DNA of 64,000 bases from Pseudomonas phage EL, in the sequence record AJ697969.1, one strand, 5' to 3'. The notes beneath the pieces are model-generated. The model saw only the letters and a list, made by a program, of their open reading frames with translations, was not told the origin of the DNA and searched no databases. The number at the start of each line of letters is the position of its first letter. Within the stretch, counting starts at the first letter, position 1. Shown piece after piece: positions 4,477-53,092 of this stretch. Position numbers and translations under genes: made by a program.

Positions 4477-4496
4477 AAACCTACATTATTCATTTG
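4477..4496 (+). promoter_or_regulatory. Conserved phage promoter-like motif, copy 1
   Basis: aaacCTACATTATTCATTTG, 16 nt upstream of ATG 4512. Confidence 0.5.
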
Positions 4497-4511
4497 CAAG
4501 GAATACCTCTA

Positions 4512-4805
4512 ATGAACGTTCAACTCCCACGATCGGTTACCCTGGATGCCTATCTTCAACCGGACGGTACACTTATGCTGGGGCCGGGTCAGGCTAAAGT
4601 AACCATTAACTACCATTCGGATCCTCAAGAATCCATTAATGCGTGCATTGTCTTTGGAGGGGCAATGCAAGCGATTGTGACTTTTGATGAAACCGGTCAG
4701 ACCCCTGTGAGTTATACGCTGTTGAATCCAGGGGGTGATTACACCGTTGAGCAGTCGGTTCTTAACATCTTGTCCTATTTCGGAGTCAGTGCTCCGATGA
4801 ACTAG
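4512..4805 (+). CDS. Hypothetical protein
   Basis: 97-aa ORF directly downstream of promoter-like motif copy 1. The ATG at 4512 is preferred over the upstream track start. Confidence 0.45.
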   Translation: MNVQLPRSVTLDAYLQPDGTLMLGPGQAKVTINYHSDPQESINACIVFGGAMQAIVTFDETGQTPVSYTLLNPGGDYTVEQSVLNILSYFGVSAPMN

Positions 4806-4817
4806 GAGTCATGAGTC

Positions 4818-5258
4818 ATGAACAAAGCTGAAGTGATAGAACGGTACCGCGAACTGGTCGAAGACCTCACCCTCCCGCCGCATCAGGTGATCCTGTCGGC
4901 GGGTGCCGCCTTGGTGGTAATGGGCATCCGAGAGGAAACAAGTGACCTCGATGTGGATGTCCCTACCAGCGTGTTCAACTGGGCGAGTAATAAGTTCGGG
5001 GTTATCGAGAACGAAACCGTGAATAAACGGGTTCAATACACCCCCCTGGTCGATCTCCATGAATACGACGAGAACACGGGAGTGGTGTGTATTGAGGGGG
5101 TGTGGTTGTACAGCCCTACGGAGTTACTGAAACAGAAACACTGGCTCACGAAGCTGGCTGATCGAACGGACGTTAAGACCCAACAGGATCACCGTGATAT
5201 CCGCCAACTGGAAATTCTCACTCAGTCTCAACCATTCACTGCACGCGCATTGTTGTAA
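4818..5258 (+). CDS. Nucleotidyltransferase-fold protein (Lnu/ANT(2'')-like minimal NTase), paralog 1
   Basis: Motif AGAALVVMGIREETSDLDVDV resembles the GGWG..ALLG..TR.H.DIDI core of lincosamide/aminoglycoside nucleotidyltransferases. The ORF immediately downstream is a paralog. Confidence 0.5.
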   Translation: MNKAEVIERYRELVEDLTLPPHQVILSAGAALVVMGIREETSDLDVDVPTSVFNWASNKFGVIENETVNKRVQYTPLVDLHEYDENTGVVCIEGVWLYSPTELLKQKHWLTKLADRTDVKTQQDHRDIRQLEILTQSQPFTARALL

Positions 5259-5272
5259 GGTTAGGTTACGGT

Positions 5273-5767
5273 ATGTTTTACAGTCAATTGGAAGTGGTAG
5301 AAGCCGTTCAACGGTTCTCTGAGGCTCATAACACCCCATTGGATAAGATCGCTATTGGCGGAGGTGGGGCTATCATGCTCATGGGGGGTCGTGAAACCAC
5401 CTATGATTTGAACATTTGGGTGGAGAGTCCGTTCTTTGAACGCATTGCTGAAACCCAGAACGCTCTCCTCAGTCCTATGAGAGACAATGTGTTCCACATT
5501 GAAACGGTTATTGATTCCATGGATCAAACCGATCACGTCACCACACGTCGCCATTACTGGGTGCGTAAACGTAACCTCTATTTCCCCACTGTTCCTGTTA
5601 AGCTGGATCAATGTCCTGAAGTCTACATCTTCGATGCGATGTCACTGTTGATTCAGAAACGAGGGAGCTACAGTCGCCCTGAACGAGGACTCCGTCGTAA
5701 ACAGGATTACAGCGACATCTGTTTCTTGAATGCGTTGCTAAAGGAAGAACACAAAGTCAGGGCTTAA
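5273..5767 (+). CDS. Nucleotidyltransferase-fold protein, paralog 2 (possibly catalytically degenerate)
   Basis: Motif IAIGGGGAIMLMGGRETTYDLNIWV is similar to paralog 1, but the second acidic position is Asn (DLN instead of DLD). Confidence 0.5.
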   Translation: MFYSQLEVVEAVQRFSEAHNTPLDKIAIGGGGAIMLMGGRETTYDLNIWVESPFFERIAETQNALLSPMRDNVFHIETVIDSMDQTDHVTTRRHYWVRKRNLYFPTVPVKLDQCPEVYIFDAMSLLIQKRGSYSRPERGLRRKQDYSDICFLNALLKEEHKVRA

Positions 5768-5778
5768 CCTTAGGACAG

Positions 5779-5803
5779 TACCAGGGGATCACTCCCCTGG
5801 TAC
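5779..5803 (+). terminator. Hairpin terminator
   Basis: ACCAGGGGA-tcac-TCCCCTGGT palindrome just after stop codon at 5767. Confidence 0.5.
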
Positions 5804-5835
5804 GTCTTCCTCCTTATACGGTTTAGGAGATTACA

Positions 5836-7806
5836 ATGGGTAAACACTCACCTGTTGAACGGATTAAATACCTCCATGAACAACTGACGTATCACGCCCA
5901 TCTCTATTTCGTCGAGAACCGGAACGAGATCTCTGATGAAGCGTATGATGTGTTGGAGCAAGAACTCAATGAGTTGTACGACCGATACCCTGAAATAGCG
6001 GCTAAGTTCGATTTCTATAATCGTCCCGTTCCTATTCATGAACCCTCCGGGGAAACCATTCAACCCGTACGGTTCGAGGAACCCATGCTCAGCTTGAAGA
6101 AAGCCTTGAGTGTGGAGGAGGCGGATACATTCCTGTTAAAGTTCCCGGATGGTACAAACTTCTTTTACGAAGAGAAACTGGATGGGTTGGCCCTGGAGTT
6201 GGTGTATGAACAGGGACAACTGGTCAGTATGAGTACCCGGGGGTCTGGATTAGTCGGGGAAGATGTGACGCATTCCATAGTTCTCTTCGATGAAGCTACA
6301 CTTCCTCGTACCTTAAGGACACTCCCTGACCGCCATAAACCCCAGGGGGATCGATTGGTTATTCGGGGTGAAGGGTACATCAGTCTGGAACGCTTCGATT
6401 CTCTTAATGAAACAGGGGGTAAACGGTCCAATCCCCGTAATGCCGTGAGTGGGTGGGTGCGGTCCCTCCCTCAGAACCAACGGGAGGATATCCGAGGAAC
6501 GCTGTACTTCGCGGCGTATTACGCCAGTGATCGATTGGGGACGAAAGCCTATTCCGAATTGAGGCAGGTTCTCTTAGGCCTAGGGTTTGGTGTTCCTGAA
6601 TCCAGGGATTGGATTGCGGTCTCAGAGAACCGGAGGGGGAACATTCGTCCGGTGGATGGGATTGTGATTAAAGTCGACAAGTTCAAGGAACAAGACGCCA
6701 GTGGAAATGGGAGTAAATTCCCTCACTGGGCGATTGCTTACAAGTTCCCTGCGGAAGAAGCGTTGGCCCAGGTTGAGGGCTGTATCTGGAATACCTCTCG
6801 GTTTGGTCGGGTAGTACCGGTGGTCCAGTATACCCCTGTAACGATCCAAGGGGTTATCTGTCAGTCTGCGTCGTTAGATAACTACGGTTCGTTTATGGAC
6901 TTAGGGTTATCAATCGGGGATCGGATTGTTATTACCCGGAACAACGATGTGATCCCTCGGTTGAACCGGGTGGAGGAGTGTGGGGAAGGAGACCTCCTAG
7001 AAGCGCCTACAAGCTGCCCTAGCTGCGATTCTCTCCTAGAGGTAGTGGTGGGTAGGGACAGTTCCGAACTCGTCTGTAATAACGTCGCAGAGTGCCCTGC
7101 GCAGATCGTTATGCGGTGCGTAACGACGTTCGATAAGTTTGGACTGGATGTAGACGGTTTAGGACCCGTTAAGGTCAGTGAATTGGTTGAGAAAGGATGG
7201 GTTAAGCAACCAGCTGATATACTTACCCTTCCGGAAGGCATTAAGGATCAATGCCTCACCCCGACGACTCGAAGAGGTTTGGAGCGTGTCCTTCAGGAAC
7301 CCGTTCCTTTACATCGCTTCTTAAAGGCGTTGGGTATCCCGGATATTGGGATCACTTTGGCTAAACGCCTAGCCAACGCCATCCCTGAAGGGAAGATCGA
7401 AGAATCCCTTACCAATCCTAAGTTCCTACAAAGTGTACGAGGGGTTTCAGTGGGGATTGCTTACCGGGTCGTGAACGCGTTCGACTCCCCGGTCTTTAAG
7501 GACAACTTCCACGCCCTAAAAGGTTTGTTAACTCTCCAGTACACCGGAACGCAGGACGACTGCATTAAAGTCTGTATTACCGGCAACATTGGACCTTCCC
7601 GAGGAGAACTCTGTAACCTGTTCGCTAAGGAAGGGATTGAACTCAGTGATCGGCTTACCCAGGACTGTGCCTTCGTCATTGTGGGTGATCGTCCTGGTAA
7701 ATCGAAACTGTTAATTGCAACCGAATCGGGTATACCTATGCTAATTGCAAAGGATTATTCGAGCATTGGCTCCCTCATTCAGTTCATTAAAGGACACCGA
7801 GAATGA
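5836..7806 (+). CDS. ligA: NAD+-dependent DNA ligase (LigA family)
   Basis: Adenylation motif EEKLDGLALELVYEQG (KxDG), followed by TRGSGLVGEDVT. Cys4 zinc finger (CPSCDS...CNNVAECP). C-terminal BRCT-like segment. RBS AGGAG before the ATG. Confidence 0.9.
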   Translation: MGKHSPVERIKYLHEQLTYHAHLYFVENRNEISDEAYDVLEQELNELYDRYPEIAAKFDFYNRPVPIHEPSGETIQPVRFEEPMLSLKKALSVEEADTFLLKFPDGTNFFYEEKLDGLALELVYEQGQLVSMSTRGSGLVGEDVTHSIVLFDEATLPRTLRTLPDRHKPQGDRLVIRGEGYISLERFDSLNETGGKRSNPRNAVSGWVRSLPQNQREDIRGTLYFAAYYASDRLGTKAYSELRQVLLGLGFGVPESRDWIAVSENRRGNIRPVDGIVIKVDKFKEQDASGNGSKFPHWAIAYKFPAEEALAQVEGCIWNTSRFGRVVPVVQYTPVTIQGVICQSASLDNYGSFMDLGLSIGDRIVITRNNDVIPRLNRVEECGEGDLLEAPTSCPSCDSLLEVVVGRDSSELVCNNVAECPAQIVMRCVTTFDKFGLDVDGLGPVKVSELVEKGWVKQPADILTLPEGIKDQCLTPTTRRGLERVLQEPVPLHRFLKALGIPDIGITLAKRLANAIPEGKIEESLTNPKFLQSVRGVSVGIAYRVVNAFDSPVFKDNFHALKGLLTLQYTGTQDDCIKVCITGNIGPSRGELCNLFAKEGIELSDRLTQDCAFVIVGDRPGKSKLLIATESGIPMLIAKDYSSIGSLIQFIKGHRE

Positions 7807-9110
7807 CTGTTAAAACTGACACCAACGACCAACAACACACTACCACCGACCCGGTAGTAGCAATGAAACTCAAGAAGGCCGAGAAGGCTCTGAAACACTC
7901 CAAGGAACTGGGTAAGAAGATGAAACACGACAAGGAACAGTTGGATAAGAAATCCATTACCCAACCCACTGAGAATAAAGAGTACCGTTCCGCCCCTGAG
8001 CCTTCTAAGCCCAAGGTGGTGGTTGACGGTAAGGAACTGGTGGCTCTCGATACCAAGCCGTACGGCGAATGGATCCGTTCCAAAGAAGGACACGATATTT
8101 TTGGGAATACATTCTGGTCAGTAGGTGTAACCGCGGAAATCGCCCTCTTCTCTCATTTCAAGACAACTTTTTGCGGAGTTGAACTCGATCTCTTGGTCGA
8201 CTCCTATTCTGAAGTTACGCTGGAAACCCCTACTGACGTTCCTTTCCTTAACGTCAGTAAGCGTAAGGGGAGTGCTGTGGTAGTCAACTCGGTGGTTAAT
8301 CGTTGTGAGTTTGAAGGGGAGAATTGTCTTCTGAATGTCGAGATTAACGACTGTGTGGTTAACAAGAGCAAGGTCGTTCGTACACGATCGACCGAATTGC
8401 GACCAATCGACGAACTGATCGACTTCCCAAAAAGAGCGGATGTATTTAGACGAGGGGTCGATCAACGCGCCCGGTACAACGACTGCCGTTTCATCGAATC
8501 CGAGATTAAAGATTCTCCCATCAATGGCAAGGGCTTAGTGAAAGAGTCGTATGTGGATCGTACCCACATTACCGCTGGGAAGTTTGCCATCGTTAAATCG
8601 CATCTTACCACCACCACCCTCACCGCATCCATGCTGTCTCTCTCGAAAGCTTACCTTCATGGTTGTTACTTGAGCGTTTCTGAAACGCTGATCCTTCGCA
8701 ACTTCACCCTCCGGAATAAGACGCTTTACATGAGGTCACTCTACGCGCCTAATAAACTGGGTCTTACGGAGATCGAACTTCCGTTCCATCCTCAAAATCT
8801 TATTCTGCACCGCACCTCAAAAACACAGTATGTAATCTCCATCCGCTCGGGTGGTTCGTCCGGCCTTGAACTGGGGAGCGACGTAACTTGGGAAGAACTC
8901 AGTGAAAAACTGGGTGAACTCTTGATAAAAACCCCGATGGTCAATAACGAGATCTCTGAAGACGGACTCCTCTTCAAAAGCATCTTGAATTATGTCCTGA
9001 AGTCGGTGATTTCTCGGATGAAGATCATCAAGTTGATGGACGATGTGATGGCTGTTAACCGTAGTATCACATCAGATTTCGAGGATCCTGAGTCCGTCCC
9101 GTATTGTTAG
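7803..9110 (+). CDS. Hypothetical protein with Lys-rich N-terminus
   Basis: 435-aa ORF translationally coupled to the ligase (ATGA overlap) and followed by a hairpin terminator. Confidence 0.5.
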   Translation: MTVKTDTNDQQHTTTDPVVAMKLKKAEKALKHSKELGKKMKHDKEQLDKKSITQPTENKEYRSAPEPSKPKVVVDGKELVALDTKPYGEWIRSKEGHDIFGNTFWSVGVTAEIALFSHFKTTFCGVELDLLVDSYSEVTLETPTDVPFLNVSKRKGSAVVVNSVVNRCEFEGENCLLNVEINDCVVNKSKVVRTRSTELRPIDELIDFPKRADVFRRGVDQRARYNDCRFIESEIKDSPINGKGLVKESYVDRTHITAGKFAIVKSHLTTTTLTASMLSLSKAYLHGCYLSVSETLILRNFTLRNKTLYMRSLYAPNKLGLTEIELPFHPQNLILHRTSKTQYVISIRSGGSSGLELGSDVTWEELSEKLGELLIKTPMVNNEISEDGLLFKSILNYVLKSVISRMKIIKLMDDVMAVNRSITSDFEDPESVPYC

Positions 9111-9120
9111 TACACAACAC

Positions 9121-9155
9121 CTTACTCCCCAGGTAATCCTGGGGAGTAAGGGTTT
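9121..9155 (+). terminator. Hairpin terminator
   Basis: CTTACTCCCCA-ggtaatcc-TGGGGAGTAAG followed by GGTTT. Confidence 0.55.
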
Positions 9156-9190
9156 AATTGCCTACTTACCTGTAAAAGGGAGGTTAACGA

Positions 9191-9682
9191 ATGTCCAAAA
9201 CAAAGAGGAATGACCGATATGTCATTTATACCGATGGGAGCGCGTTAGGGAATCCAGGTCCGGGCGGTTACGGTGTTTACGCTAAATACAAAGGGGAAGA
9301 ATTCTCCCTGAGTAAAGGGTATTACAAAACCACTAACAACCGTCAAGAACTCATGAGTGTGATTGCAGCACTGGAAGAGTTTGGTCCTAATATCAAAGTG
9401 GACATCTTCACTGACTCCCAATACGTCATTAAGTGTGCTACTAAATGGATGAGAGGATGGATACGGAACAACTGGATGGGGTATAACTCTGGGCAACCGG
9501 TTAAGAACCGCGATCTGTTGGAAGTCCTCAATGAACTCTTGAAGAAGAATAAGGTAAAGTTCCATTGGGTTAAAGGTCACTCTGGGGATGAAGGGAATGA
9601 AAAGGCAGACCAATTAGCCAAGGATGCTGCCAATAATCCGGAAGCCCACGATATGGAATACATGAAAGTCTTAGGGTTCTAA
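9191..9682 (+). CDS. rnhA: Ribonuclease HI
   Basis: TDGSALGNPGPGGYG, TTNNRQELM, DSQYV and VKGHSGDEGNEKADQLA motifs, which are the canonical RNase HI catalytic residues and motifs. Strong RBS GGGAGG. Confidence 0.9.
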   Translation: MSKTKRNDRYVIYTDGSALGNPGPGGYGVYAKYKGEEFSLSKGYYKTTNNRQELMSVIAALEEFGPNIKVDIFTDSQYVIKCATKWMRGWIRNNWMGYNSGQPVKNRDLLEVLNELLKKNKVKFHWVKGHSGDEGNEKADQLAKDAANNPEAHDMEYMKVLGF

Positions 9683-9707
9683 TCAATCAACCGTGGAGAT
9701 TAACACT

Positions 9708-10946
9708 ATGAAAAGCTTTATTGATGTATCAGTAGTAGAAGATGGGGGTAAACAGTTCCTCTTCGGTATTACTGCGAATCAAAAGACAGGACGACCCGAA
9801 GTCGTAGGATATACCGATCCTGATTATTTCAGAGAGGGTGCTGACCGTGTGTTTGAACAGCTTATCCGGGAAGAACAACGAAAGGAAGCGGATATTAAAC
9901 TCCAGTTAGCCTTTATTAAGGTGGTCAAGGAACATCCCGGTAAACAACTGCAACTCACGCTTTGCTACAGCGCAAATGGACCGTCAGCTGGAGAATTTTA
10001 TTGGGTGGAGGATCGGTGTTATACGGCTGACGGAGTGTCCTTCCTATCGAATGCTCCGGTGTGTATCTATCATAAGAACTGTCTGGATGGTACTGCGGCA
10101 GCTTGGGCGGTAAGACGTGCACTCCCCTTGGTTGAATTGGTGGCTATGAGCTATCATGATGATCCGTACGAACTCTTTGGCCCGGGGTTGGAGTATCTAC
10201 AAGGGAGAATGGTCTATTGTGTTGATTTCAGTTTTAAGAAAGCAGTTGTAGAAGCGATTGCTAATTTACCGGATACAGGCTTGTTGATCTTGGATCATCA
10301 CGAGAGTGCTCAACGGGAACTGGGTGAACTCGTCGTTGGTTATTCCGGGAAATCAACGCTGGGTGATCGGGTTGAGATTATCATCGATATGACACGTTCA
10401 GGCGCTAAGTTGACGTACGACTACTTCCACCCTCAACAACCGACGCCTCCGGGTATTCTGGCGGTACAAGATCGGGATCTGTGGAAATGGGGGTACGAAG
10501 GCAGTAAGGAATGGACCGCAGCTGCCTTTGGGTATCCCCTCACCGTTGAGAGTTTCGATAAACTGATTCATCGGGATTACCAAGACGTGGTAGAAGAAGG
10601 TCGTACCGTCCTTCGTAAGCAGGAATTGGATGTCGAGAAACTGCTCCCGAGTGCGCGGCCTTACACGTTGGAGGGGTACAACTGCTTGATTGTTAATGCC
10701 AGTTATTTCCACGCCAGTGATGTAGGGGATAAACTGAAGGGTCGAGACGGTATTGACTTTGTAGTCACTTACATGGATGGTAAGGATAGCCGGATCTTCT
10801 CTCTACGGGGTAAGGATAAAGTGAACCTAGCGGAAGTGGCTGAACGTTTTGGAGGAGGCGGCCACCCTAACGCAGCAGGGTTCACCTTGAGCTTCAACGA
10901 TCCTCGTTTCTCCCAGTCACACCTGTTACTATATTCCGGTACTTAA
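9708..10946 (+). CDS. DHH/DHHA1-family phosphoesterase (RecJ/NrnA-like) with N-terminal extension of about 120 aa
   Basis: DHH motifs YHKNCLDG (motif I), ILDHHES (motif III) and FGGGGHPNAAGF (DHHA1 GGGH). The ATG at 9708 is preferred because of a GGAG RBS. Confidence 0.75.
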   Translation: MKSFIDVSVVEDGGKQFLFGITANQKTGRPEVVGYTDPDYFREGADRVFEQLIREEQRKEADIKLQLAFIKVVKEHPGKQLQLTLCYSANGPSAGEFYWVEDRCYTADGVSFLSNAPVCIYHKNCLDGTAAAWAVRRALPLVELVAMSYHDDPYELFGPGLEYLQGRMVYCVDFSFKKAVVEAIANLPDTGLLILDHHESAQRELGELVVGYSGKSTLGDRVEIIIDMTRSGAKLTYDYFHPQQPTPPGILAVQDRDLWKWGYEGSKEWTAAAFGYPLTVESFDKLIHRDYQDVVEEGRTVLRKQELDVEKLLPSARPYTLEGYNCLIVNASYFHASDVGDKLKGRDGIDFVVTYMDGKDSRIFSLRGKDKVNLAEVAERFGGGGHPNAAGFTLSFNDPRFSQSHLLLYSGT

Positions 10947-11114
10947 ATGGACACTCACACACTGTTCTTAATCATTGACCTGGTAGGTAAATCCGTTTTT
11001 ATTGGTGACTTAGTGACTCGCGTGGACGACCATCGACTTATGAAGTCTATCCGATATTTGGAGAATCGGAAGGTGATTAAAACAGTTACGGTTACCCAAT
11101 GTTTACGTAACTAA
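10947..11114 (+). CDS. Small hypothetical protein (55 aa)
   Basis: ATG directly abuts the TAA of the DHH gene. It is not in the ORF track, being under 60 aa. Confidence 0.3.
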   Translation: MDTHTLFLIIDLVGKSVFIGDLVTRVDDHRLMKSIRYLENRKVIKTVTVTQCLRN

Positions 11115-11133
11115 CAGGTATTCCATTTGATGG

Positions 11134-11184
11134 GGGGTGGTTAGTATACAGGCTAACCACCCTGTTCTCTCTATTTTTTTTTTC
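11134..11184 (+). terminator. Hairpin plus T-run
   Basis: GGGTGGTTAG-tatacaggc-CTAACCACC followed by T11 run at 11174-11184. Confidence 0.5.
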
Positions 11185-11196
11185 GGGATAAGTGGA

Positions 11197-11622
11197 ATGA
11201 ATAATTACGGGTATGTGGATGTGTCCTTGGTAGGACCTGAAGTAGAGGAAATCTTTGGCTTGCTCTTGGAGTGTGGTATTGCACCGGCTGCGGAGTATAA
11301 CCTGCATTGTACCCTGATGTACGATGAACAGGCAGAAGAACCGCTGGTGAAACTGAATCCTGATGCGAAATTCACCGCCTACGTGACAGGGATTGATGTA
11401 CTGGGAGATGGATTGGTGTTTAACCTTACCAGCAAAGACCTCGCTGATGAACACCGCAGGTTGAAAGACGGTGGATATACCCATTCCTTTGATGCCTTCT
11501 TACCGCACATGTCTGTCACCTATGACTTCGATGAATACGACATGTTGAAAGTGAAGCAAGCTTTCGCAACCTGGGGTGGTCGACAACTCACCTTCAGTAA
11601 AGAATCGTTCGGAACCAAATAA
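11197..11622 (+). CDS. 2H phosphoesterase superfamily protein (LigT-like; candidate Acb1-like cyclic-oligonucleotide phosphodiesterase)
   Basis: Two H-x-T/S-x motifs (LHCTLMY and PHMSVTY) about 65 aa apart in a roughly 141-aa protein, which is the 2H family hallmark. Confidence 0.55.
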   Translation: MNNYGYVDVSLVGPEVEEIFGLLLECGIAPAAEYNLHCTLMYDEQAEEPLVKLNPDAKFTAYVTGIDVLGDGLVFNLTSKDLADEHRRLKDGGYTHSFDAFLPHMSVTYDFDEYDMLKVKQAFATWGGRQLTFSKESFGTK

Positions 11623-11630
11623 GACCCGAT

Positions 11631-11664
11631 ACTACCCCTACCCTTGACCGGGTAGGGGTAGGTT
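11631..11664 (+). terminator. Hairpin terminator
   Basis: CTACCCCTACCC-ttgacc-GGGTAGGGGTAG then GTTT. Confidence 0.6.
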
Positions 11665-11686
11665 TAAGGGAGTAAAAAATTAAGTT

Positions 11687-11708
11687 AAGGAATGAAACAA
11701 ACCTACAT
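11687..11708 (+). promoter_or_regulatory. Conserved phage promoter-like motif, copy 2
   Basis: acaaacCTACATTACCAGGGTG, 77 nt upstream of ATG 11785. Confidence 0.5.
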
Positions 11709-11784
11709 TACCAGGGTGAATAGACAACGGGATTGTTTGCAGGTAAGTGACTTTCCCTTCTAAAGACAGAAAAGGGTTATAAAG

Positions 11785-12999: not shown

Positions 13000-13054
13000 G
13001 CAATACGGAATAACAGCGAACATGATTAAACTCAGTTAATCGACTGACGGTGCT

Positions 13055-13084
13055 CGACTACGAGGGGTTATTCCCTCGTAGTTG
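13055..13084 (+). terminator. Hairpin terminator
   Basis: CGACTACGAGGG-gttatt-CCCTCGTAGTTG. Confidence 0.5.
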
Positions 13085-13105
13085 GGTATTCGTTCTCTAT
13101 TTTTT

Positions 13106-13128
13106 AATACACCTACATCATTCTTGTG
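13106..13128 (+). promoter_or_regulatory. Conserved phage promoter-like motif, copy 9 (variant)
   Basis: aatacaCCTACATCATTCTTGTG. Confidence 0.4.
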
Positions 13129-13130
13129 TA

Positions 13131-13484
13131 ATGAGAGTGTTTATTTTTGTTAGAGGTAAGGTTGTGAACACATCCAACACACCACATAAACCCCTCCAGT
13201 TCAGCCATCAGTTCTTCTACACCATGGGGTATAAGGCTGGGTACTACGGAGCTCCACTCGAATTCAAGGATTACTCCTTGTCTTCGTGCCAATTCAATTG
13301 CCTCTACTTGGGGTATATCCACGGGTATTCTGAGAAGAGAAAGAAAGGGATTTGGAATTTCCTTAAGAATGTCTACCTTAAAGTGCGGTATAAAAGAACC
13401 CTTATTGGGGATTCCCAAGCCCAGTTTGAGAAGGACTATGGGCATATCCCCCAGATTCGTTATCACCTTAATCCATCTGAATAA
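13131..13484 (+). CDS. Hypothetical protein (start uncertain; possibly leaderless or starts at 13224)
   Basis: ORF directly after motif copy 9. AT-rich region with no clear RBS. Confidence 0.3.
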   Translation: MRVFIFVRGKVVNTSNTPHKPLQFSHQFFYTMGYKAGYYGAPLEFKDYSLSSCQFNCLYLGYIHGYSEKRKKGIWNFLKNVYLKVRYKRTLIGDSQAQFEKDYGHIPQIRYHLNPSE

Positions 13485-13499
13485 GCGAGGTTGATATTA

Positions 13500-14099: not shown

Positions 14100-14213
14100 G
14101 CATCACAGTCTGCGGAACAACATCTTCTCGCAGGGCGAGGATTACCTCAAAGCCCGCAAATCCACCACTCAGGGTCTTGTTACCTTGAACATCAGCTGTA
14201 AGGAGCTTAAGTA

Positions 14214-14588: not shown

Positions 14589-14596
14589 TCTTACTT

Positions 14597-14618
14597 AGGG
14601 GTAGGCAACTACCCCTTC
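14597..14618 (+). terminator. Short hairpin
   Basis: AGGGGTAG-gcaa-CTACCCCT. Confidence 0.4.
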
Positions 14619-14836: not shown

Positions 14837-14915
14837 CCCGCTTAACCACCCCCACTCTGTAAAAGGAGTTGGGGTGGCGGGTGTTTATTTCTTTTAGTTT
14901 AAAACGTATTTATTC

Positions 14916-14937
14916 TCAAACCTACATTATTCATATG
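14916..14937 (+). promoter_or_regulatory. Conserved phage promoter-like motif, copy 3
   Basis: tcaaacCTACATTATTCATATG, 46 nt upstream of ATG 14983. Confidence 0.5.
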
Positions 14938-21093: not shown

Positions 21094-21098
21094 AAATT

Positions 21099-21121
21099 AA
21101 TAAACCTATATTACTCAGGTG
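21099..21121 (+). promoter_or_regulatory. Conserved phage promoter-like motif, copy 4
   Basis: aataaaCCTATATTACTCAGGTG, 37 nt upstream of the chaperonin ATG. Confidence 0.5.
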
Positions 21122-23664: not shown

Positions 23665-23702
23665 TTACCTCTCTTCGTACCTCATTTCAATTCCAGTGAA
23701 TT

Positions 23703-23724
23703 TCAAATCTACATCATCAGTGTG
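23703..23724 (+). promoter_or_regulatory. Conserved phage promoter-like motif, copy 10 (variant)
   Basis: tcaaatCTACATCATCAGTGTG. Confidence 0.4.
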
Positions 23725-35906: not shown

Positions 35907-36010
35907 AGAAGTAGATAGAGGGTTCGGTCATTAGACCATAAAATTGGTAAATAAAATAGTACCCAAACCCATATTCTTCACTTACCTGGTTATTTAACTT
36001 GAGGTTCTTT

Positions 36011-36032
36011 TCAAACCTACATAATCAGGGTG
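36011..36032 (+). promoter_or_regulatory. Conserved phage promoter-like motif, copy 5
   Basis: tcaaacCTACATAATCAGGGTG, 43 nt upstream of ATG 36075. Confidence 0.5.
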
Positions 36033-36520: not shown

Positions 36521-36542
36521 GGACATTTAACGTCCAGTGGTA

Positions 36543-36565
36543 ATCAAGTCTATATTACTTGGGTG
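36543..36565 (+). promoter_or_regulatory. Conserved phage promoter-like motif, copy 6
   Basis: atcaagTCTATATTACTTGGGTG, 42 nt upstream of ATG 36607. Confidence 0.5.
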
Positions 36566-37593: not shown

Positions 37594-37832
37594 GCTTCAT
37601 TTCCATTTTTATAGTTCACTCAACACAACGAGCAAAGTAATGCCTGACACTAACAACGGTCCTGTGGAAATAAAGATGGAACGTGTGCAGTTCAAAAGAA
37701 TAAAAGTAAGGGGTCTTCGTAAATTCTGGTTACTCATCAAACGCTTACTGAGTAAGGACACCGATTATAAGAACACTTGACGAACGCATGGCTAAGTCAA
37801 TGGAACTAAGGGTAATTAACTTCTAGTTGTAA

Positions 37833-37855
37833 TCAGGTCTATATTACCTTTGTGT
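37833..37855 (+). promoter_or_regulatory. Conserved phage promoter-like motif, copy 7
   Basis: atcaggTCTATATTACCTTTGTG, 52 nt upstream of ATG 37907. Confidence 0.5.
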
Positions 37856-38263: not shown

Positions 38264-38264
38264 T

Positions 38265-43620: not shown

Positions 43621-43631
43621 CGAAAACGACT

Positions 43632-43666
43632 ATACTCCAGGAGAGCCGTTGGGCTCTCCTGGAGTA
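43632..43666. terminator. Bidirectional hairpin between convergent genes
   Basis: ACTCCAGGAGAGCC-gttg-GGCTCTCCTGGAGT. Confidence 0.6.
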
Positions 43667-43673
43667 GTCGGTA

Positions 43674-44306: not shown

Positions 44307-44309
44307 TCA

Positions 44310-45656: not shown

Positions 45657-45689
45657 GATTGGCTCACCGTTGATGTAAGGAATACGCCC

Positions 45690-46145
45690 ATGGTTTTAGG
45701 TATTGCAAAGGAGATGGCGGATAGATTCATAGAATTCGTTCTTAAATTCTTCAAAGGGGAGTCTGCTGAAGACCAACTGAGCAAAGCCCTTAAAGTTTCA
45801 GTACTTACTATTGCCCTGCTACTGTTTGGTTTGTTTGCATTGTTGAGTAACAACCTCAACCTGCGCATGGATCTGGCGGATGCTGAAATTGGTCTGGCTA
45901 AGATTAATATGCTCTTCGACCCTACTGTGGGGGAAGGGGGACCTTTAAAAGAGTTCGTTCGTATCAATGATGCGTTGAGTCGACAACTAGACAGTGTTAA
46001 GAATCAAAATATCATCTTGTCGAAACGAACCATTACTGCAACGGCTGAAAACAAGGTACTTAAGGAACACCTACTTAAGGTCCTTGAAGAGAACAAGATT
46101 CTACAAAATAATAACCAAATGCTGTTGAGAAAATGTACACAATAG
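45690..46145 (+). CDS. Hypothetical membrane protein with C-terminal coiled coil
   Basis: TM helix VLTIALLLFGLFALLS followed by a heptad-rich segment. AAGGA RBS before ATG 45690. Confidence 0.4.
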   Translation: MVLGIAKEMADRFIEFVLKFFKGESAEDQLSKALKVSVLTIALLLFGLFALLSNNLNLRMDLADAEIGLAKINMLFDPTVGEGGPLKEFVRINDALSRQLDSVKNQNIILSKRTITATAENKVLKEHLLKVLEENKILQNNNQMLLRKCTQ

Positions 46146-46211
46146 GGACCGGTTAAATTCCACAAGGATGTGTATCCCATGTACACGCACCTACTAGAAT
46201 GAGTTAACGTA

Positions 46212-47723
46212 ATGGAAGCCATCACACCGTCTGTCAACTGGGTTATGTACCTCCTGGTAGGACATAACAGCAAGTTAAAGAAAAACGGCTACTTCCTGGG
46301 TGGTCATGGGTATTCTTACGATATCCAACAAGAAGGTAAGCGTAAGCTAACCAAGGATGTCCCGACGTCGGCGGGGTATTATACCGGTAATCCTCAGAAG
46401 ACCAATACGGCTGTAACGATTCGGGATATTGTGTCGTTGACCGTAGTGAATGCGGAGAGTGAGCTGGAAGCCCTCTTGAAGGGATATTGGGAAGTCCTGA
46501 ATGCCCTTACCACCGATCCCATCCTGAAGAACCTGTGTGTCATTACCGAACACAAAGTCTTGGAAGCCTTGAGTAAGGTGGACAAGAAGAAAGTCGAAGA
46601 CGCTGAAGAGTTCAAACTCGGAAGACTGGTTTTAAGCGCAACGGAGCGAGCGGTGTTGTTAGACATCCTCACCTGCTTGGAAATAGCCAGTCAAACAGAC
46701 CGTCGGGTGGTCTTCGATTTCCCAGGTGTTGCAGAAGGGGGTCAAGGGAATAAGGAAGCTGCCAAACAAAGGGACCTTGCTGAAACGATCAGTCTGTTTG
46801 GGTTTAAGAAGGAAACCAACCTGGAAGTGGTTTCCCGTAAGGAGTATGAAAACCCAGAGGTGGAATTCAACAAGATCGTCAGTGCCTCTCGGTGGTATTT
46901 CAATACCTTGGATCCTGAAGCGTTCTATAAAGAACAACACGGGTATCGAGTGTACGGGTTTGGTAAAGTCGAACGGGATAAAACGTACTACGGTAAGCTC
47001 ACCCCGGATGTGACCTACTCCAAACTCTACACCAAACGACCCCTTCGTTTACTGGATAAGTTGTTTGACTTTACGGTACAACGGATTGCCAATCCCGAGG
47101 GGTATTTGTCAGCAGGGGATCTGAACCACATTGTTACCAAGGATGTGGCGCGGTTAGTGGATCATTTCCCAGGGGTTCCTAAGGAAAAGGAACTGATCTC
47201 CCCTTTCACCAAACAGAACACGAAACCGGTTCTGATTGAGCTTATATCCCCGGTCTTGATGTCGTATCGGATCAGGGATTTCTTAATTGGGATGGATATT
47301 CTGTTTGAAGGGTTTATGAACAAGGATACCGAGAACAGGTATGGGTATCTGACGTTCTACATTATCACGGATTTGATTTACCAGAAGGAAGTCAATGGAA
47401 AAGGGGTGGAGAAGCTTAAGCTGGATCCAGCCTTTACCCAGACTCGGGAAACGATCAGTTTAAAGGTCACTCATCCCAGCGCAATTAAACCGGTAACCAT
47501 CAAGCTGTCCATTGGGTACGACACTCCGGATCGGAACGCTTTTAATTCGATTACGGACCCTAAGGTTAAGGTCTGGTGTGTGACAGACACCCGGAACAAG
47601 GAAGGTTTGCGGTACGCGACGATTGTGGAGACGGATGAGTTTATCTATATCCATACGTCGGCGATTGCTAACCTTCGGGTGTTAACCTTGGCGGAGTTAG
47701 GACGAAGTACTGATAAAGCGTGA
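46212..47723 (+). CDS. Hypothetical protein
   Basis: 503-aa ORF followed by a hairpin. Confidence 0.5.
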   Translation: MEAITPSVNWVMYLLVGHNSKLKKNGYFLGGHGYSYDIQQEGKRKLTKDVPTSAGYYTGNPQKTNTAVTIRDIVSLTVVNAESELEALLKGYWEVLNALTTDPILKNLCVITEHKVLEALSKVDKKKVEDAEEFKLGRLVLSATERAVLLDILTCLEIASQTDRRVVFDFPGVAEGGQGNKEAAKQRDLAETISLFGFKKETNLEVVSRKEYENPEVEFNKIVSASRWYFNTLDPEAFYKEQHGYRVYGFGKVERDKTYYGKLTPDVTYSKLYTKRPLRLLDKLFDFTVQRIANPEGYLSAGDLNHIVTKDVARLVDHFPGVPKEKELISPFTKQNTKPVLIELISPVLMSYRIRDFLIGMDILFEGFMNKDTENRYGYLTFYIITDLIYQKEVNGKGVEKLKLDPAFTQTRETISLKVTHPSAIKPVTIKLSIGYDTPDRNAFNSITDPKVKVWCVTDTRNKEGLRYATIVETDEFIYIHTSAIANLRVLTLAELGRSTDKA

Positions 47724-47727
47724 ACAT

Positions 47728-47765
47728 TATACCTACTGGGAGGTGTGAACCTCCCAGTAGGTATA
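47728..47765. terminator. Bidirectional hairpin between convergent genes
   Basis: TATACCTACTGGGAGGT-gtgaa-CCTCCCAGTAGGTATA. Confidence 0.65.
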
Positions 47766-47774
47766 CGTATGTTA

Positions 47775-48617
47775 CTATTTTGCTTTGGTTACAATCGTCT
47801 CGGTCTGATCACGGAAGACGGCCGCCAGTTCGTTCAGGAGGGTCATCATCGCTCCGCAGATGTCCGTAAACTCCACAAAACGATTAACCACCAACTCCAC
47901 TTCGGTCAGAATCTTCTCATCCACGACGAGATCATTGGTTTTGATCTTCTCAACCAGGAGTTGTCCCAGTTCATAGACCCGAGACAATTCCCGACTGGCC
48001 ATTTCAACATCCCGAGCGCCCAGTAGCTTGGCCGACACGTTGTAGGTTTCCAGTACGTTGTACAGTTCTTCGAAATTGACGTAAACTTCACCCAGGGTAC
48101 ACGTCTTGCGGTGGGGGTTGGATGGGAGACCTTTAAGGAACTGTTCGGAACGGTCCAGTACCGTATCGAAGTTGGTAATGGTCCAACGGAAACGGGTTTC
48201 AGGACGACCGGTCTTAATCAGTTGTTTAAGCCAATCGTATAGTCGAATTGCTTCAGTTTTCATACTACTGACCAGATAGACCCCATCCGTGGCTACGAAT
48301 TGGGTATAAGCCATCATATTACCGAGGCCGGGTGTGTAGGTCTCCGGGACAATGACTGGCAACCCAGCGTTCTTAACAAAGAGAATCTCTTTCCGCTGGA
48401 TCGTTTTACGGAACTTTTCAACGTCCAGAGTGATAACCGACTTTTCGAAGGCGGCCAGACGGCGGTCTATAGAGGCACCGAACTCAGAGAAGAAAAGACC
48501 CACACTTTCCCCTACACTGAGTTTTTCAGCCCCCAGGACTGAGAGAAGCTGGGGATTCTTGATCCGTTCGATGAAGTCTTTCGATGTAAAGGAATGTTCC
48601 ATAACTGAAAATCTCAT
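47775..48617 (-). CDS. Hypothetical protein
   Basis: 280-aa ORF. Confidence 0.5.
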   Translation of the reverse strand: MRFSVMEHSFTSKDFIERIKNPQLLSVLGAEKLSVGESVGLFFSEFGASIDRRLAAFEKSVITLDVEKFRKTIQRKEILFVKNAGLPVIVPETYTPGLGNMMAYTQFVATDGVYLVSSMKTEAIRLYDWLKQLIKTGRPETRFRWTITNFDTVLDRSEQFLKGLPSNPHRKTCTLGEVYVNFEELYNVLETYNVSAKLLGARDVEMASRELSRVYELGQLLVEKIKTNDLVVDEKILTEVELVVNRFVEFTDICGAMMTLLNELAAVFRDQTETIVTKAK

Positions 48618-48714
48618 GAGTATAGTTTGGGGAATGGGTTTTTACGCAGACCCATCTAAAGCAGGGCGTTGCCCTTTCAGCTAAAGTTCATAAAATACGA
48701 GGAATAAGAGGAAC

Positions 48715-50184
48715 ATGAGTACGCCTCTTCTGTTTACCCAAGAGTTGGAATCGTCGGATACGTTGATTGTAAATCTTCCGTTTTCCCCTATTTTCGATAT
48801 GTTAAACACCGAGATCTTGATGAGTGCATCAGGGGTGGCGTATAACAACGGGGGTCTTTGTCGTAACAATGCGATCGTCGGTGGGAACAACACCCAGAAG
48901 ACCGGGATGACCGTACTGGGTATGGCACGGGTCTTGATTCGGTTTAAAGGGTCTGTTGTCTTCTTCTTTGATATTGAGGCCACCTTCTCCGTAGACCGTC
49001 TGGCGGAAATGATAGACCGAGAGATCGGTATTCACGGGTACTTCAACGAACAGATACTCGGCAAGCGCTTCTTCTACTTCTCTCGGAATGATTTGGTAAA
49101 TCCCTGTGATGGCACCTTTGTTCATGATAAGTTCAAATGGTTGAAGGGGAAGATCGCTGAACAGATTAAGGCCAAAGCCGATATCTTCATGAAGACCCCG
49201 TTTACGGACAGCAAAGGCAACCCCGTTAAAATCATTACCCCTATTCTGTGCGTGGTCGACTCTATCTCTGAAATGCCCTTCCATCGGGTATCGGAACATT
49301 TCCAAGAAGGGGATGTTGATCAAGGCGGAGAGAAGAAGACGCGCGATCTGGTGATTGGGAACCTCCGTCGTATCGTCTATGAAGACGCCGATATCTTGGG
49401 TGGGGTATCGGGTTGTTACCAGATTTGGGTTGCTCAGGTTGTTGATAAGATCAACATGACTGGGCGTCCTGAGGAGAAGGAATCTATTTTCATCCGTCCG
49501 GGTAAGAAGCTGAAAGGTCCTAAGGCCATGATGCGTATTCCGCAGATCGGTCACGAGATCCTTAAAGGTTCAGTGCTTAAAGGCGGAAGTAATGGTCAAG
49601 AGTGGTTGTACCCGAATCCCTTTGGTAAAGATGTTATTGTGACTCCTGATGCCAAAGAAATGCCTGACTTGATGATTTATAATAATCAACCCTATCGGAA
49701 TAAGGCGGGGATGTCAGGTATTAACGCGTTCTTCATTGGTTCCCAGTCCATGGGAATTCAAGAAGGTCTGACCATGTACCATGTACTGAAGACAGCTAAG
49801 TACTTCGGCCTGGAAGGGAGTGACCGCAGTCATCACTGCATTCTGTACCCTGATCTGAAGGTGGGACGTACCACTGTATGGGAAAATACCATTGAAGACC
49901 GTAAATTCCTGCGAGCACTGACCATCATTTACCACTTGTGGTTCATGCAAACCTTCTGGCTGACACTTCCCCACAAATACCGTCTGACTCCTCAGGCATT
50001 GTACGACGGTATTATTGCTCAAGGACTGGACTGGAACGATATTCTGGAGAACACAGTAGACTACTGGTACACGAATCCAGATATTGACAAGTACACTGTT
50101 ACAACGTATGAACTCATTCGCATTGCACTGGGTGAACGTAAACCTTACTGGAAAGAGAAAGGTGCACCTAAGGCTATTATTTAA
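48715..50184 (+). CDS. Hypothetical protein (weak RecA-fold ATPase-like features)
   Basis: NAIVGGNNTQKTGMTVL...VVFFFDIEATFS...ILCVVDSISEM is loosely reminiscent of the RecA P-loop/DxE/Walker B arrangement, but the Walker A is degenerate. Confidence 0.45.
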   Translation: MSTPLLFTQELESSDTLIVNLPFSPIFDMLNTEILMSASGVAYNNGGLCRNNAIVGGNNTQKTGMTVLGMARVLIRFKGSVVFFFDIEATFSVDRLAEMIDREIGIHGYFNEQILGKRFFYFSRNDLVNPCDGTFVHDKFKWLKGKIAEQIKAKADIFMKTPFTDSKGNPVKIITPILCVVDSISEMPFHRVSEHFQEGDVDQGGEKKTRDLVIGNLRRIVYEDADILGGVSGCYQIWVAQVVDKINMTGRPEEKESIFIRPGKKLKGPKAMMRIPQIGHEILKGSVLKGGSNGQEWLYPNPFGKDVIVTPDAKEMPDLMIYNNQPYRNKAGMSGINAFFIGSQSMGIQEGLTMYHVLKTAKYFGLEGSDRSHHCILYPDLKVGRTTVWENTIEDRKFLRALTIIYHLWFMQTFWLTLPHKYRLTPQALYDGIIAQGLDWNDILENTVDYWYTNPDIDKYTVTTYELIRIALGERKPYWKEKGAPKAII

Positions 50185-50189
50185 ATAAA

Positions 50190-50220
50190 GGGTGGGAGGG
50201 TAGCCTGAGTCCTCCCACCC
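50190..50220 (+). terminator. Hairpin terminator
   Basis: GGGTGGGAGG-gtagcctgagt-CCTCCCACCC. Confidence 0.5.
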
Positions 50221-50242
50221 CGACTTTGTAAAGGACCCCCTC

Positions 50243-50617
50243 ATGGAAACAGCACCGTGCCCTACCACCATTCTCATTATGGCGGACAGTAACTTTATTA
50301 ATCTTTGCCTGGATCCGTTCGACTACATCAGGCGGTTGAAAGAACGGGTGTCTGCCGTGCGGGAGGATAACCCGTTGTTGTATACCGTCAGTGGTCGCTA
50401 TGGTGTGAGCGCGATTGACAGTGAAATCCCGGTGATTGAAGTGAATGACCGGAATAAGACCCTCTTCAGTCAAACCTTGGAGAACTGCTCCATGTTGTTT
50501 GACGAACTCCTGGCGATCAGTACGGTCGAAAGTGATCCCTTTATTAACTCCGCCAAAGAAGTGATTACATTGGCCAACAAGACGTTTACACATTACAAAT
50601 ACCCGAGGAAAGTGTAA
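50243..50617 (+). CDS. Hypothetical protein
   Basis: 124-aa ORF. Confidence 0.4.
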   Translation: METAPCPTTILIMADSNFINLCLDPFDYIRRLKERVSAVREDNPLLYTVSGRYGVSAIDSEIPVIEVNDRNKTLFSQTLENCSMLFDELLAISTVESDPFINSAKEVITLANKTFTHYKYPRKV

Positions 50618-51294
50618 TGGCTGGCAACCGGAAGGCATTTGAAGAACATGTGTATAAAGCCTTTGGTCCTCTGACCAAAGGGGGTGGCAATAAGAAGATT
50701 TATGAGAAACTCTTTGCCACCATGGACGATGACGCTTTTGAAGACTTCGTCCAGTGGTTGGAAAAAGGGAATCCGTTAGCGATTTGGGCCAGTAACTTTG
50801 TTCCTGAAGAGAAACTGAATTTCGATAACCTGATGAGACTCTGTAAACAGTTCGGTATTGAAGTTGAACACCAACTGGTTATTTACGACGAAGACACCGG
50901 GATCAAGTCACTGACCGCTTATAAGGCGATTGTAGGACGTGCTGAAGTCCGTAAACAACGTCAGATGTTGTCCAAGAAGTTCAGTGCGGCTAAGAACGAC
51001 TACGAAATCGATGACCTCACCGGTCAACCCATGGGGGACAGCCGGAGTGCGGGGATCAGCGGTCCTGAGGTTACCGTACTGCGTAACCTGGGTTTGAACA
51101 TCATGGCGAATGAACTGTACAACGTTAAAGGCGGCGACCAAGAGGCCTTTAAGGCGTACAAGAACGATTTGTTGACCACCGGTAAGACCACCACCAATGG
51201 GAGCCTGCGTAAAGGCTCAGGTACCAAGGTGTTGAGCACGGTCCACCACCTCATGCGTGGTCGTCATATCGACACTAACTTTAACCAGAAGTGA
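50617..51294 (+). CDS. Hypothetical protein
   Basis: 225-aa ORF overlapping the upstream stop. Confidence 0.45.
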   Translation: MAGNRKAFEEHVYKAFGPLTKGGGNKKIYEKLFATMDDDAFEDFVQWLEKGNPLAIWASNFVPEEKLNFDNLMRLCKQFGIEVEHQLVIYDEDTGIKSLTAYKAIVGRAEVRKQRQMLSKKFSAAKNDYEIDDLTGQPMGDSRSAGISGPEVTVLRNLGLNIMANELYNVKGGDQEAFKAYKNDLLTTGKTTTNGSLRKGSGTKVLSTVHHLMRGRHIDTNFNQK

Positions 51295-51303
51295 TCTCTC
51301 CCC

Positions 51304-51717
51304 ATGGATAAACTCATTCATTTGTCGAATACCATTCAAGAAGTATGGTTGGACCTGTCAACCGGAGAAGCTCCTCCTCCCATTCTTCAGAACTTCTCGT
51401 CGCTTATCAACCGTCCTTTGATCTGTTTTAATGAAGCCTATTCAGTCTTCATGAACCAAGTGGGAAGTAGTAGTGATCTCTTCGACAGTTGGGTCAGTAT
51501 TCAAATGATGGTTATCACCCGCTTGGGCGAGCATCAGGTGGCGTTCAGTCAGTTCAGTCAAATGTTCAAGGAAGTCTTTAAGACCATTGAAGGGGGTAAT
51601 GGACTGGATATTTCCGACGAGAATGAATATAAACGCTGGAGTTTCTTGATTGCTTTAGCGTTTAGGGTGTATACCACTCATTTCATTGTACCCCCACCTA
51701 AAGGACGTAAGGCATGA
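51304..51717 (+). CDS. Hypothetical protein
   Basis: 137-aa ORF. Confidence 0.4.
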   Translation: MDKLIHLSNTIQEVWLDLSTGEAPPPILQNFSSLINRPLICFNEAYSVFMNQVGSSSDLFDSWVSIQMMVITRLGEHQVAFSQFSQMFKEVFKTIEGGNGLDISDENEYKRWSFLIALAFRVYTTHFIVPPPKGRKA

Positions 51718-52496
51718 ATCGGGTATTAACCGCCTACGCGGATGTGGACAGTCTCTTCGATTATCGGAGGGGATTGATTCAGAAGTGGTTAACACGAGAC
51801 ATGGCTGTTAGTGATGAAAACAGCTTGAGTGATGAAGCCTTTGCAGCGTATCAAGAGAAACGCCGGCTTCAAGGGGACACCCTGTGGGAACTTCATATTG
51901 AGAAGAACTACAGGGAGAGAAGGATGGATACGTTTAACTATCCGTTCTTTGGGTTCACCCGACAGATATTCAGGGAACTCTATCAGAAACGGAGTTTACG
52001 GGATTGGGGGTACGGGTATTACCCCACAGGGTTCCTGTCTAATTTCGTCAAGGTGATTATCGAGCATGAACAACTGACCGATAAACCTATCGAGATCAAA
52101 GGGGTGACCCTCACGATCAACTGTTTCCCTTATGTCATGGATACAGCCCTTAAGGAGGAGTTGATCGAGCACGTTAAGACTCGGTTAGGCTACCGGGTAG
52201 AGGTGAAGACCGTTGATGACGACATTATCAATGCGACACCCTCCTACTATCGACAGTTCGATTATGTCTTCAAATACGACTTCCTGTTGAATGAAGACTA
52301 TAAGTCCTTCTTTGAGAACGTCGGTAAACCGCCTATTCCTGATACGGCGTTTTTGGTTCCAGATCTCCTGGTTCAAGAAACCGAGTATTTGGAAGGGAGT
52401 ATTTACGACCGTATCTTCGCCCAATCCATTGCGCTGGCTCCTGTATTGAAATTGATTCCGATCAACAAAGGTTTCTATGATTACTTGACGGAATAA
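51714..52496 (+). CDS. Hypothetical protein
   Basis: 260-aa ORF with ATGA overlap to the upstream gene. Confidence 0.45.
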   Translation: MNRVLTAYADVDSLFDYRRGLIQKWLTRDMAVSDENSLSDEAFAAYQEKRRLQGDTLWELHIEKNYRERRMDTFNYPFFGFTRQIFRELYQKRSLRDWGYGYYPTGFLSNFVKVIIEHEQLTDKPIEIKGVTLTINCFPYVMDTALKEELIEHVKTRLGYRVEVKTVDDDIINATPSYYRQFDYVFKYDFLLNEDYKSFFENVGKPPIPDTAFLVPDLLVQETEYLEGSIYDRIFAQSIALAPVLKLIPINKGFYDYLTE

Positions 52497-52506
52497 CCCC
52501 TTTATT

Positions 52507-52534
52507 AACTGGGTGGGGATCTCCCCACCCAGTT
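52507..52534. terminator. Bidirectional hairpin between convergent genes
   Basis: AACTGGGTGGGGA-tc-TCCCCACCCAGTT. Confidence 0.65.
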
Positions 52535-52546
52535 ATGTTCGCTTGG

Positions 52547-53059
52547 TTAAATTTCCTCACCATCGATATCCACCAGCTGATTCCCCTGCACCAGCTCTTC
52601 TTCCGTAATGGGACTCAAGGTAGGATCCAGAGGCAGGGGTTTAGAGGGATCCAGTACGAACTGCGAGAACTCAAAGGTGGGGAGTTTAATCCCTCCACTT
52701 TGAATACGCTCCATAGCCTCCAGCATTTGGTTAAAGGCCAGTCGGTTGCCTTCATTCTCTTTCTTCTTAGCCCGCTCTTTACGGTCATCCCGTACGGTCT
52801 TCTCAATCTGCGCAATAATCTGGGTGACCCCTTCCAGCAGATGCGCGTTCTTCGGATTATCCAAATACGCAGACATAGCGTATTCCAGAATGAAAGCCCG
52901 GTTACGTTGTACTACCTTAACCAGTTCTTCCTGTTCGATATCCTCCAGATTACCAGTCATTGCCTTACGGAGTTCTTCCAGAACCGTTTGCATTTTATCC
53001 GTATCCAAAGGACTGGCTTTCTTCTTTTCCTTTTCGGGTGTGTCGTCAGGCGTTTCCAT
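52547..53059 (-). CDS. Hypothetical acidic/charged protein
   Basis: 170-aa ORF with natural-looking composition. The plus-strand ORF across it looks spurious. Confidence 0.5.
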   Translation of the reverse strand: METPDDTPEKEKKKASPLDTDKMQTVLEELRKAMTGNLEDIEQEELVKVVQRNRAFILEYAMSAYLDNPKNAHLLEGVTQIIAQIEKTVRDDRKERAKKKENEGNRLAFNQMLEAMERIQSGGIKLPTFEFSQFVLDPSKPLPLDPTLSPITEEELVQGNQLVDIDGEEI

Positions 53060-53065
53060 GATTTT

Positions 53066-53092
53066 TCAGACCTACATTATTCGTTTGAGTGG
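53066..53092 (+). promoter_or_regulatory. Conserved phage promoter-like motif, copy 8
   Basis: ttcagaCCTACATTATTCGTTTGAGTG, 17 nt upstream of ATG 53109. Confidence 0.5.

Follow-up and report, generated by a model that had tools for sequence, protein, structure and literature searches.

Ten predicted early promoters of the virion RNA polymerase in a 64,000-nucleotide region of Pseudomonas phage EL

Main finding

A 64,000-nucleotide (nt) stretch of the Pseudomonas phage EL genome (AJ697969.1; hereafter, the window) contains ten copies of the motif ttTcAaaCCTAyATnAy-N4-(G/T)TG, all on the plus strand and all intergenic. These sites are very probably early promoters of an Elvirus, an EL-like jumbo phage of the family Chimalliviridae, and would be read by a virion-packaged RNA polymerase. 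Homology with phiKZ, AR9, and phiR1-37 points to recognition by the multisubunit, sigma-less enzyme that travels in the phage particle and enters the cell along with the DNA. In this reading, ttTcAaaCCTAyATnAy would cover about -23 to -7, the invariant 3' T-G would correspond to -1/+1, and transcription would begin at the G that follows the C of CTA by 15 nt. A short plus-strand unit lies behind each promoter, and several units are bounded by strong hairpin terminators, as in the arrangement promoter-GroEL-terminator. A promoter motif is already known for phage EL: Table 2 of PMC7058600 gives WTTTYAAACCTACATTATY as the predicted EL promoter and credits Hertveldt et al. (2005, J Mol Biol 354:536), which makes the present motif a rediscovery.

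Sequence and statistics of the motif

The C of the CTAYAT core lies at 4481, 11703, 13113, 14922, 21106, 23709, 36017, 36550, 37839, and 53072, and the sites are named below by these positions. A preliminary description of the window had listed ten plus-strand copies upstream of plus-strand genes. All ten were present, but the start coordinates had not been given in one register and fell 4-16 nt before the core, 11687 being the worst. A 25-nt weight matrix was derived from the ten sites themselves and used to scan both strands. The ten sites scored 25.9-33.7 bits and every other position in the window, on either strand, scored below 8 bits, a gap that is partly circular because the matrix was made from the same ten sites. 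As no other position reached 8 bits, the earlier list was complete, without a tail of weaker copies. The pattern CTAYATNAYNNNNNTG matched 12 times in the window, compared with 0.30 ± 0.56 matches expected from dinucleotide-preserving shuffles; two of the 12 were on the minus strand (10710 and 59886), within coding sequence, and scored below 8 bits.

The segment CTAYATnAY was near-invariant in the ten window sites and in 26 aligned sites (window, one relative, and distant contigs), and would span about -15 to -7 with the conserved G as +1. This G stood at octamer + 7 and was preceded by a T in 10/10 window sites; thus the TG of the previously described (G/T)TG end held throughout, while site 14922 has ATG in its place. 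Exact TATATTAC octamers begin at 21107, 36551, and 37840. The number reported earlier was correct, whereas the starts had been given as 21106, 36551, and 37842. The form TACATTAT, with C at the third octamer position, was found in seven of the ten sites. Upstream, ttTcAaa occupied about -23 to -17 in most sites and a weaker tAg lay near -28; outside about -40 to +3, the flanks of the aligned sites were not conserved. The early consensus of AR9 is AAATATATATTAT-(6N)-G+1, and transcription in phiKZ and phiR1-37 likewise starts 6 nt downstream of the element (PMC5312081), which places the predicted +1 at the G that ends the motif. Every window site was co-oriented with the plus-strand gene downstream, and the distance from the last motif G to the best-supported start codon was 16-79 nt, where 16-77 nt had been given before.

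The motif in close and distant relatives

The window has a G+C content of 49.5%. With a 6-kb probe, it was 96.8-98.3% identical to seven Pseudomonas aeruginosa jumbo phages (MIZ-Pa99, IR-QUMS-PaBa1, phiRU, GXNNE2, GXNNA8, HHBS8_1, and HHBS47_1), several of which are classified as Elvirus, family Chimalliviridae, in their records. The taxonomy line of the MIZ-Pa99 record (PV472050.1) reads Pantevenvirales; Straboviridae, yet this phage is 98% identical to the window and the other close matches are Elvirus (Chimalliviridae); the record is therefore probably mislabelled.

The MIZ-Pa99 genome (209,813 bp, 98% identical to the window) was assembled and scanned with the matrix on both strands at a cut-off of at least 10 bits. 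All 22 matches were on the plus strand, compared with 74-80% of the coding capacity (P about 0.001-0.007). Nineteen of the 22 lay outside coding sequences (CDSs) longer than 200 nt, although such DNA makes up 8% of the genome (P = 2e-18); the motif is thus not equally frequent inside coding regions. No match preceded the head or tail gene clusters on either strand of this genome. One match precedes the nuclear-shell (chimallin) gene and the adjacent RNA polymerase subunit gene, as in phiKZ, and other matches beyond the part equivalent to the window stand before series of small genes without known function and before a gene for an HslV-like peptidase. The unconserved flanks, the strict co-orientation, and the absence before structural operons across this whole genome fit the view that the motif marks a temporally distinct promoter class and is not a repeat.

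All ten sites were kept in five close relatives, and the changes fell at degenerate positions except for one A>G in HHBS8_1. The chaperonin, used as a query, yielded four IMG/VR contigs of 184-236 kb with a GroEL only 38-40% identical. The motif was found 60-100 nt upstream of GroEL in all four (for example, caaaCCTATATTACtactGTG and cacaCCTACATTATctatATG), and in three of them the motif recurs some 3 kb further downstream, there with TTAACTT upstream of it. Orthologue-anchored searches with the proteins encoded at 53109-53684 and 11785-12996 found no IMG/VR relatives.

An exact IMG/VR scan for AAACCTAYATTAYNNNNGTG gave at least 81 matches. Among the matches listed, 36 came from contigs 200 kb or longer, and in 35 of these 36 an open reading frame (ORF) starts within 120 nt downstream. 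The listed sites also share a T-rich block upstream, though it was absent from the query pattern. These matches in large contigs with an ORF downstream indicate that, as judged from sequence, the CCTAYATTAY-N4-GTG variant is widespread among uncultivated jumbo phages of 215-310 kb.

Predicted promoters and transcription units

The predicted promoters are listed below with their first genes and related features of the window (all on the plus strand; UTR, 5' untranslated region).

4473..4496, +, predicted early promoter; +1 = G 4496; 31.2 bits; identical in five close relatives
ATG 4512, +, first gene after 4473..4496; 97 aa; UTR 16 nt
11695..11718, +, predicted early promoter; +1 = G 11718; 32.7 bits
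ATG 11785, +, first gene after 11695..11718; 404 aa; UTR 67 nt
13105..13128, +, predicted early promoter; +1 = G 13128; 28.7 bits; follows a 19-bp terminator-like hairpin at 13049-13090
GTG 13164 (not ATG 13131), +, likely first gene after 13105..13128; 106 aa; UTR 36 nt
14914..14937, +, predicted early promoter; +1 = G 14937; 32.1 bits
ATG 14983, +, first gene after 14914..14937; 134 aa; UTR 46 nt; Shine-Dalgarno sequence AAAGGAGG
21098..21121, +, predicted early promoter of the chaperonin (GroEL-like) gene; +1 = G 21121; 31.2 bits
21158-22834, +, chaperonin (GroEL-like) gene; UTR 37 nt; a hairpin plus T-run at 22842-22876 ends the unit
23701..23724, +, predicted early promoter; +1 = G 23724; 33.0 bits
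ATG 23782 or 23803, +, first gene after 23701..23724; 193 or 186 aa
36009..36032, +, predicted early promoter in a divergent intergenic region; +1 = G 36032; 32.7 bits
ATG 36075, +, first gene after 36009..36032; 58 aa; UTR 43 nt; TTAACTT about 24 nt upstream of the core
36542..36565, +, predicted early promoter; +1 = G 36565; 29.7 bits
36607-37086 and 37132-37539, +, genes of the unit after 36542..36565, followed by a hairpin at 37547-37577
37831..37854, +, predicted early promoter; +1 = G 37854; 25.9 bits
37907-38263, +, Arc-like ribbon-helix-helix gene; Pfam PF03869, E = 5.9e-14; its unit ends at the hairpin 38477-38510
53064..53087, +, predicted early promoter; +1 = G 53087; 33.7 bits
ATG 53109, +, first gene after 53064..53087; 192 aa; phrog_15064; UTR 22 nt
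50617-51294, +, phage multisubunit RNA polymerase subunit (beta-like fragment); phrog_3233 'RNA polymerase beta subunit', E = 2.4e-82

In relatives, site 11695..11718 showed changes at degenerate positions only (TTACC versus TAATC). A promoter copy before the chaperonin gene had been noted previously, and this placement stood; together with the hairpin and T-run at 22842-22876, promoter 21098..21121 makes the chaperonin gene look like a self-contained promoter-gene-terminator unit. The claim that several downstream genes are rich in G+C at third codon positions (GC3) was not upheld: GC3 was 0.44-0.67 in the first downstream genes versus 0.47-0.64 in the other genes of the window.

Between the GroEL terminator and promoter 23709 lies a 209-aa gene (22997-23626, plus strand) that has no motif copy of its own; it is presumably transcribed from a promoter of a different class, either middle or late. 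The motif was also not found upstream of the RNA polymerase subunit gene at 50617-51294. The phiKZ-related class is characterised by two sets of split beta/beta'-like RNA polymerase subunits, one of them in the virion; in MIZ-Pa99, at least nine CDSs across the genome are annotated 'RNA polymerase beta subunit'. The Arc-like protein encoded at 37907-38263, under promoter 37839, could be an early-expressed phage regulator. Its gene is on the plus strand in HHBS8_1 and IR-QUMS, while an ORF on the opposite strand is annotated at this place in MIZ-Pa99. Long perfect hairpins with stems of 14-19 bp were present at gene ends (9120-9151, 13049-13090, 22842-22876, 37547-37577, 38477-38510, and 43633-43666); these are likely transcription terminators, and some could be bidirectional.

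For the copy that abuts an ATG, at site 13113, the preliminary description had offered either a leaderless transcript or a mis-called start. ATG 13131 would leave a leader of 3 nt after the predicted +1, whereas the in-frame GTG 13164 is preceded by AGAGGTAAGG and would give a 36-nt leader. In phiKZ, a leader of 36 nt is typical and leaderless transcripts were not detected (PMC8244752). The 106-aa form of the gene is annotated in GXNNE2, and most relatives are annotated with the ATG 13131 form. Of the two proposals, the mis-called start is more likely, with translation beginning at GTG 13164. GXNNE2 has an additional 750-nt ORF (L131 12406-13155; corresponding to window about 13000-13100) directly upstream of its counterpart of promoter 13113. 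Its presence upstream of an unchanged promoter suggests a gene gain at the terminator-promoter junction.

Alternative explanations

Several points weigh against reading the sites as early promoters of the virion RNA polymerase. Start-site mapping, timing data, and rifampicin tests for EL or any Elvirus were not found in the literature searched, so we infer from homology with other phages which polymerase reads the sites, that they act early, and where exactly +1 lies. Sites 36550 and 37839 also pass a lax sigma-70 scan (9/12). Finally, the motif had a substitution rate of 1.6% versus 2.6% for other intergenic DNA in the close relatives (P = 0.07; the genomes are not independent), a comparison that is uninformative about purifying selection at about 97% identity.

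It is improbable that the sites belong to the second, non-virion RNA polymerase of the phage as a middle or late class. In 201phi2-1, middle or late promoters were found at some genes for which early ones had been anticipated (PMC11512511), and the chaperonin, which is among the downstream genes, could be needed later in infection. However, the motif aligns with the phiKZ early class at each position. It differs from the phiKZ middle class, which has TACT near -22 after an A-rich run (PMC8244752), and from the late class, which has TATG, a G at +1, and no upstream conservation (PMC7598289). In addition, no site precedes a structural gene cluster anywhere in MIZ-Pa99. A strong host sigma-70 promoter of the extended -10 type, read early by the Pseudomonas RNA polymerase, is a very unlikely explanation. 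TAYATT does resemble a -10 hexamer, TTAACTT lies at a -35-like distance in a subset of sites, and both 36550 and 37839 give TTAACN-18-TATATT. When the stretches 4000-23900 and 35000-54000 were scanned for -35 TTGACA and -10 TATAAT with a 16-18 nt spacer, however, eight of the ten sites failed even the lax 9/12 cut-off, and the host promoter was rejected with only two passing. Conservation is highest at the CCTA that precedes the hexamer and at the T-G of -1/+1, neither of which is a determinant for sigma-70. Sigma-70-like sites were not enriched either: they were depleted in 4000-23900 (6 versus 19.5 ± 4.4 in shuffles) and not depleted in 35000-54000 (19 versus 21.8). Moreover, phiKZ-type infection is described as rifampicin-resistant and independent of the host polymerase (PMC4666361, PMC13282480).

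It is extremely unlikely that the sites are something other than such promoters, whether an operator bound by a DNA-binding protein of the phage, a signal in the RNA for processing or translation, or an N4-like hairpin promoter. An Arc-like DNA-binding protein is encoded beside one site, but the motif is asymmetric, unlike typical ribbon-helix-helix operators. The variable distance to the start codon speaks against a translational signal, and site 13113 directly follows a terminator-like hairpin, which would place it outside the upstream transcript. The N4-type virion polymerase promoter is a stable DNA hairpin with a 5-7 bp stem and a 3-nt loop. Short inverted repeats flank the core at 36550 and 37839; when folded as single-stranded DNA, however, the ten sites gave 0 to -2.3 kcal/mol (z-scores -2.3 to +1.1, mostly near zero) and had no shared stem, and the hairpin promoter was excluded.

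Possible sub-classes and significance

The two Y positions of the octamer co-varied among the ten sites and those of MIZ-Pa99 (TATATTAC versus TACATnAT, with one mixed form; Fisher P about 1e-4). This covariation was absent among the listed IMG/VR matches in jumbo contigs, where the four combinations occurred 17, 9, 7, and 3 times. Because all four occur there, the covariation was rejected as a general rule and is lineage-specific or reflects ancestry. A further feature, seen in a subset of sites, is the element (T)TTAAC(T/G)T, which lies at roughly -39 to -33, some 24 nt before the CTA core; in the window it is present at 35993-35999, 36526-36532, and 37815-37821. In three distant contigs (L006:6172, L007:6019, and L009:6201), this element is conserved at a promoter in syntenic position, some 3 kb beyond GroEL. 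Taken with the octamer covariation, the TTAACTT subset might point to two functional sub-classes of Elvirus early promoters, although we consider this rather unlikely. If true, the sub-classes could reflect a difference between immediate-early and delayed-early kinetics, or the action of a second recognition factor; we know of no such split described for a virion polymerase.

The analysis confirms that a genuine phage-specific promoter class can be recovered from raw sequence. Elvirus annotation gains ten precise predicted start sites, and two gene calls would be corrected, namely the start codon at GTG 13164 and the plus-strand Arc-like gene at 37907. No new question is opened, as the EL motif and the mechanism in this family have already been published and the window provides further instances.

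Comparison with known jumbo-phage promoters

Transcription from the early promoters of phiKZ is carried out by the virion RNA polymerase, and these promoters share a conserved AT-rich element (PMC8244752, PMC7598289, PMC13282480). This element, about 10 nt long, is centred near -10 and has been assigned to the virion-packaged multisubunit enzyme (PMC7598289). Transcripts of this class would appear within minutes, resist rifampicin, and require no new protein synthesis. Table 2 of PMC7058600 gives the phiKZ promoter consensus as TATATTAC, in agreement with the earlier statement that the octamer is of the phiKZ type, and lists …TATATTACDWHDGTG for 201phi2-1 and …KATATTATYWWADTG for OBP. A search of phiKZ over its first 50 kb yielded seven TATATTAC sites. 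All seven were on the plus strand and intergenic, and each was followed by N5-T-G and preceded by a TTTAAA-type block. One of them lies upstream of the shell gene PHIKZ054, for which a primary start site mapped by differential RNA sequencing has been tied to the early motif (PMC8244752). The two phages could be aligned position for position, as in phiKZ tttaaacagTATATTACtaacttG and window site 4481 ttttaaaccTACATTATtcatttG.

The likeness to the phiKZ early class extends to the octamer-to-TG distance, which is the same in TATATTAC-N5-TG and TAYATNAY-N4-KTG, and to the T-rich or TTTAAA block directly upstream of the element. In both cases, the sites are intergenic, on the plus strand, and located before small genes of unknown function and the nuclear-shell gene (PMC8244752). 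In contrast, the third octamer position is preferentially C in Elvirus (TACATTAT in seven of the ten sites), which also needs CC/C directly 5' of the octamer (CCTA), where phiKZ has cAG. The element also stands out more here, at 49% G+C, than in the phiKZ genome, at 37%. The phiKZ sites have been mapped experimentally, whereas those of the window are known from sequence alone. The conservation around -20/-30 has parallels in the 'T-rich motif upstream of -19' of PMC8244752 and in PMC11512511.

The early promoters of 201phi2-1, OBP, N1M2, and AR9 resemble the present sites in their octamer-to-(G)TG spacing, and in these phages, too, the G is the start, whether predicted or mapped (PMC7058600, PMC5312081, PMC11512511). 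They differ in that each has a genus-specific upstream extension and that the DNA of AR9 contains uracil. The closest counterpart is the published EL consensus WTTTYAAACCTACATTATY, which is the same sequence from the same phage group and is fitted by all ten window sites. Beyond this consensus, the present sites add the 3' (G/T)TG with a predicted +1, the TTAACTT subset, and conservation in distant uncultivated relatives.

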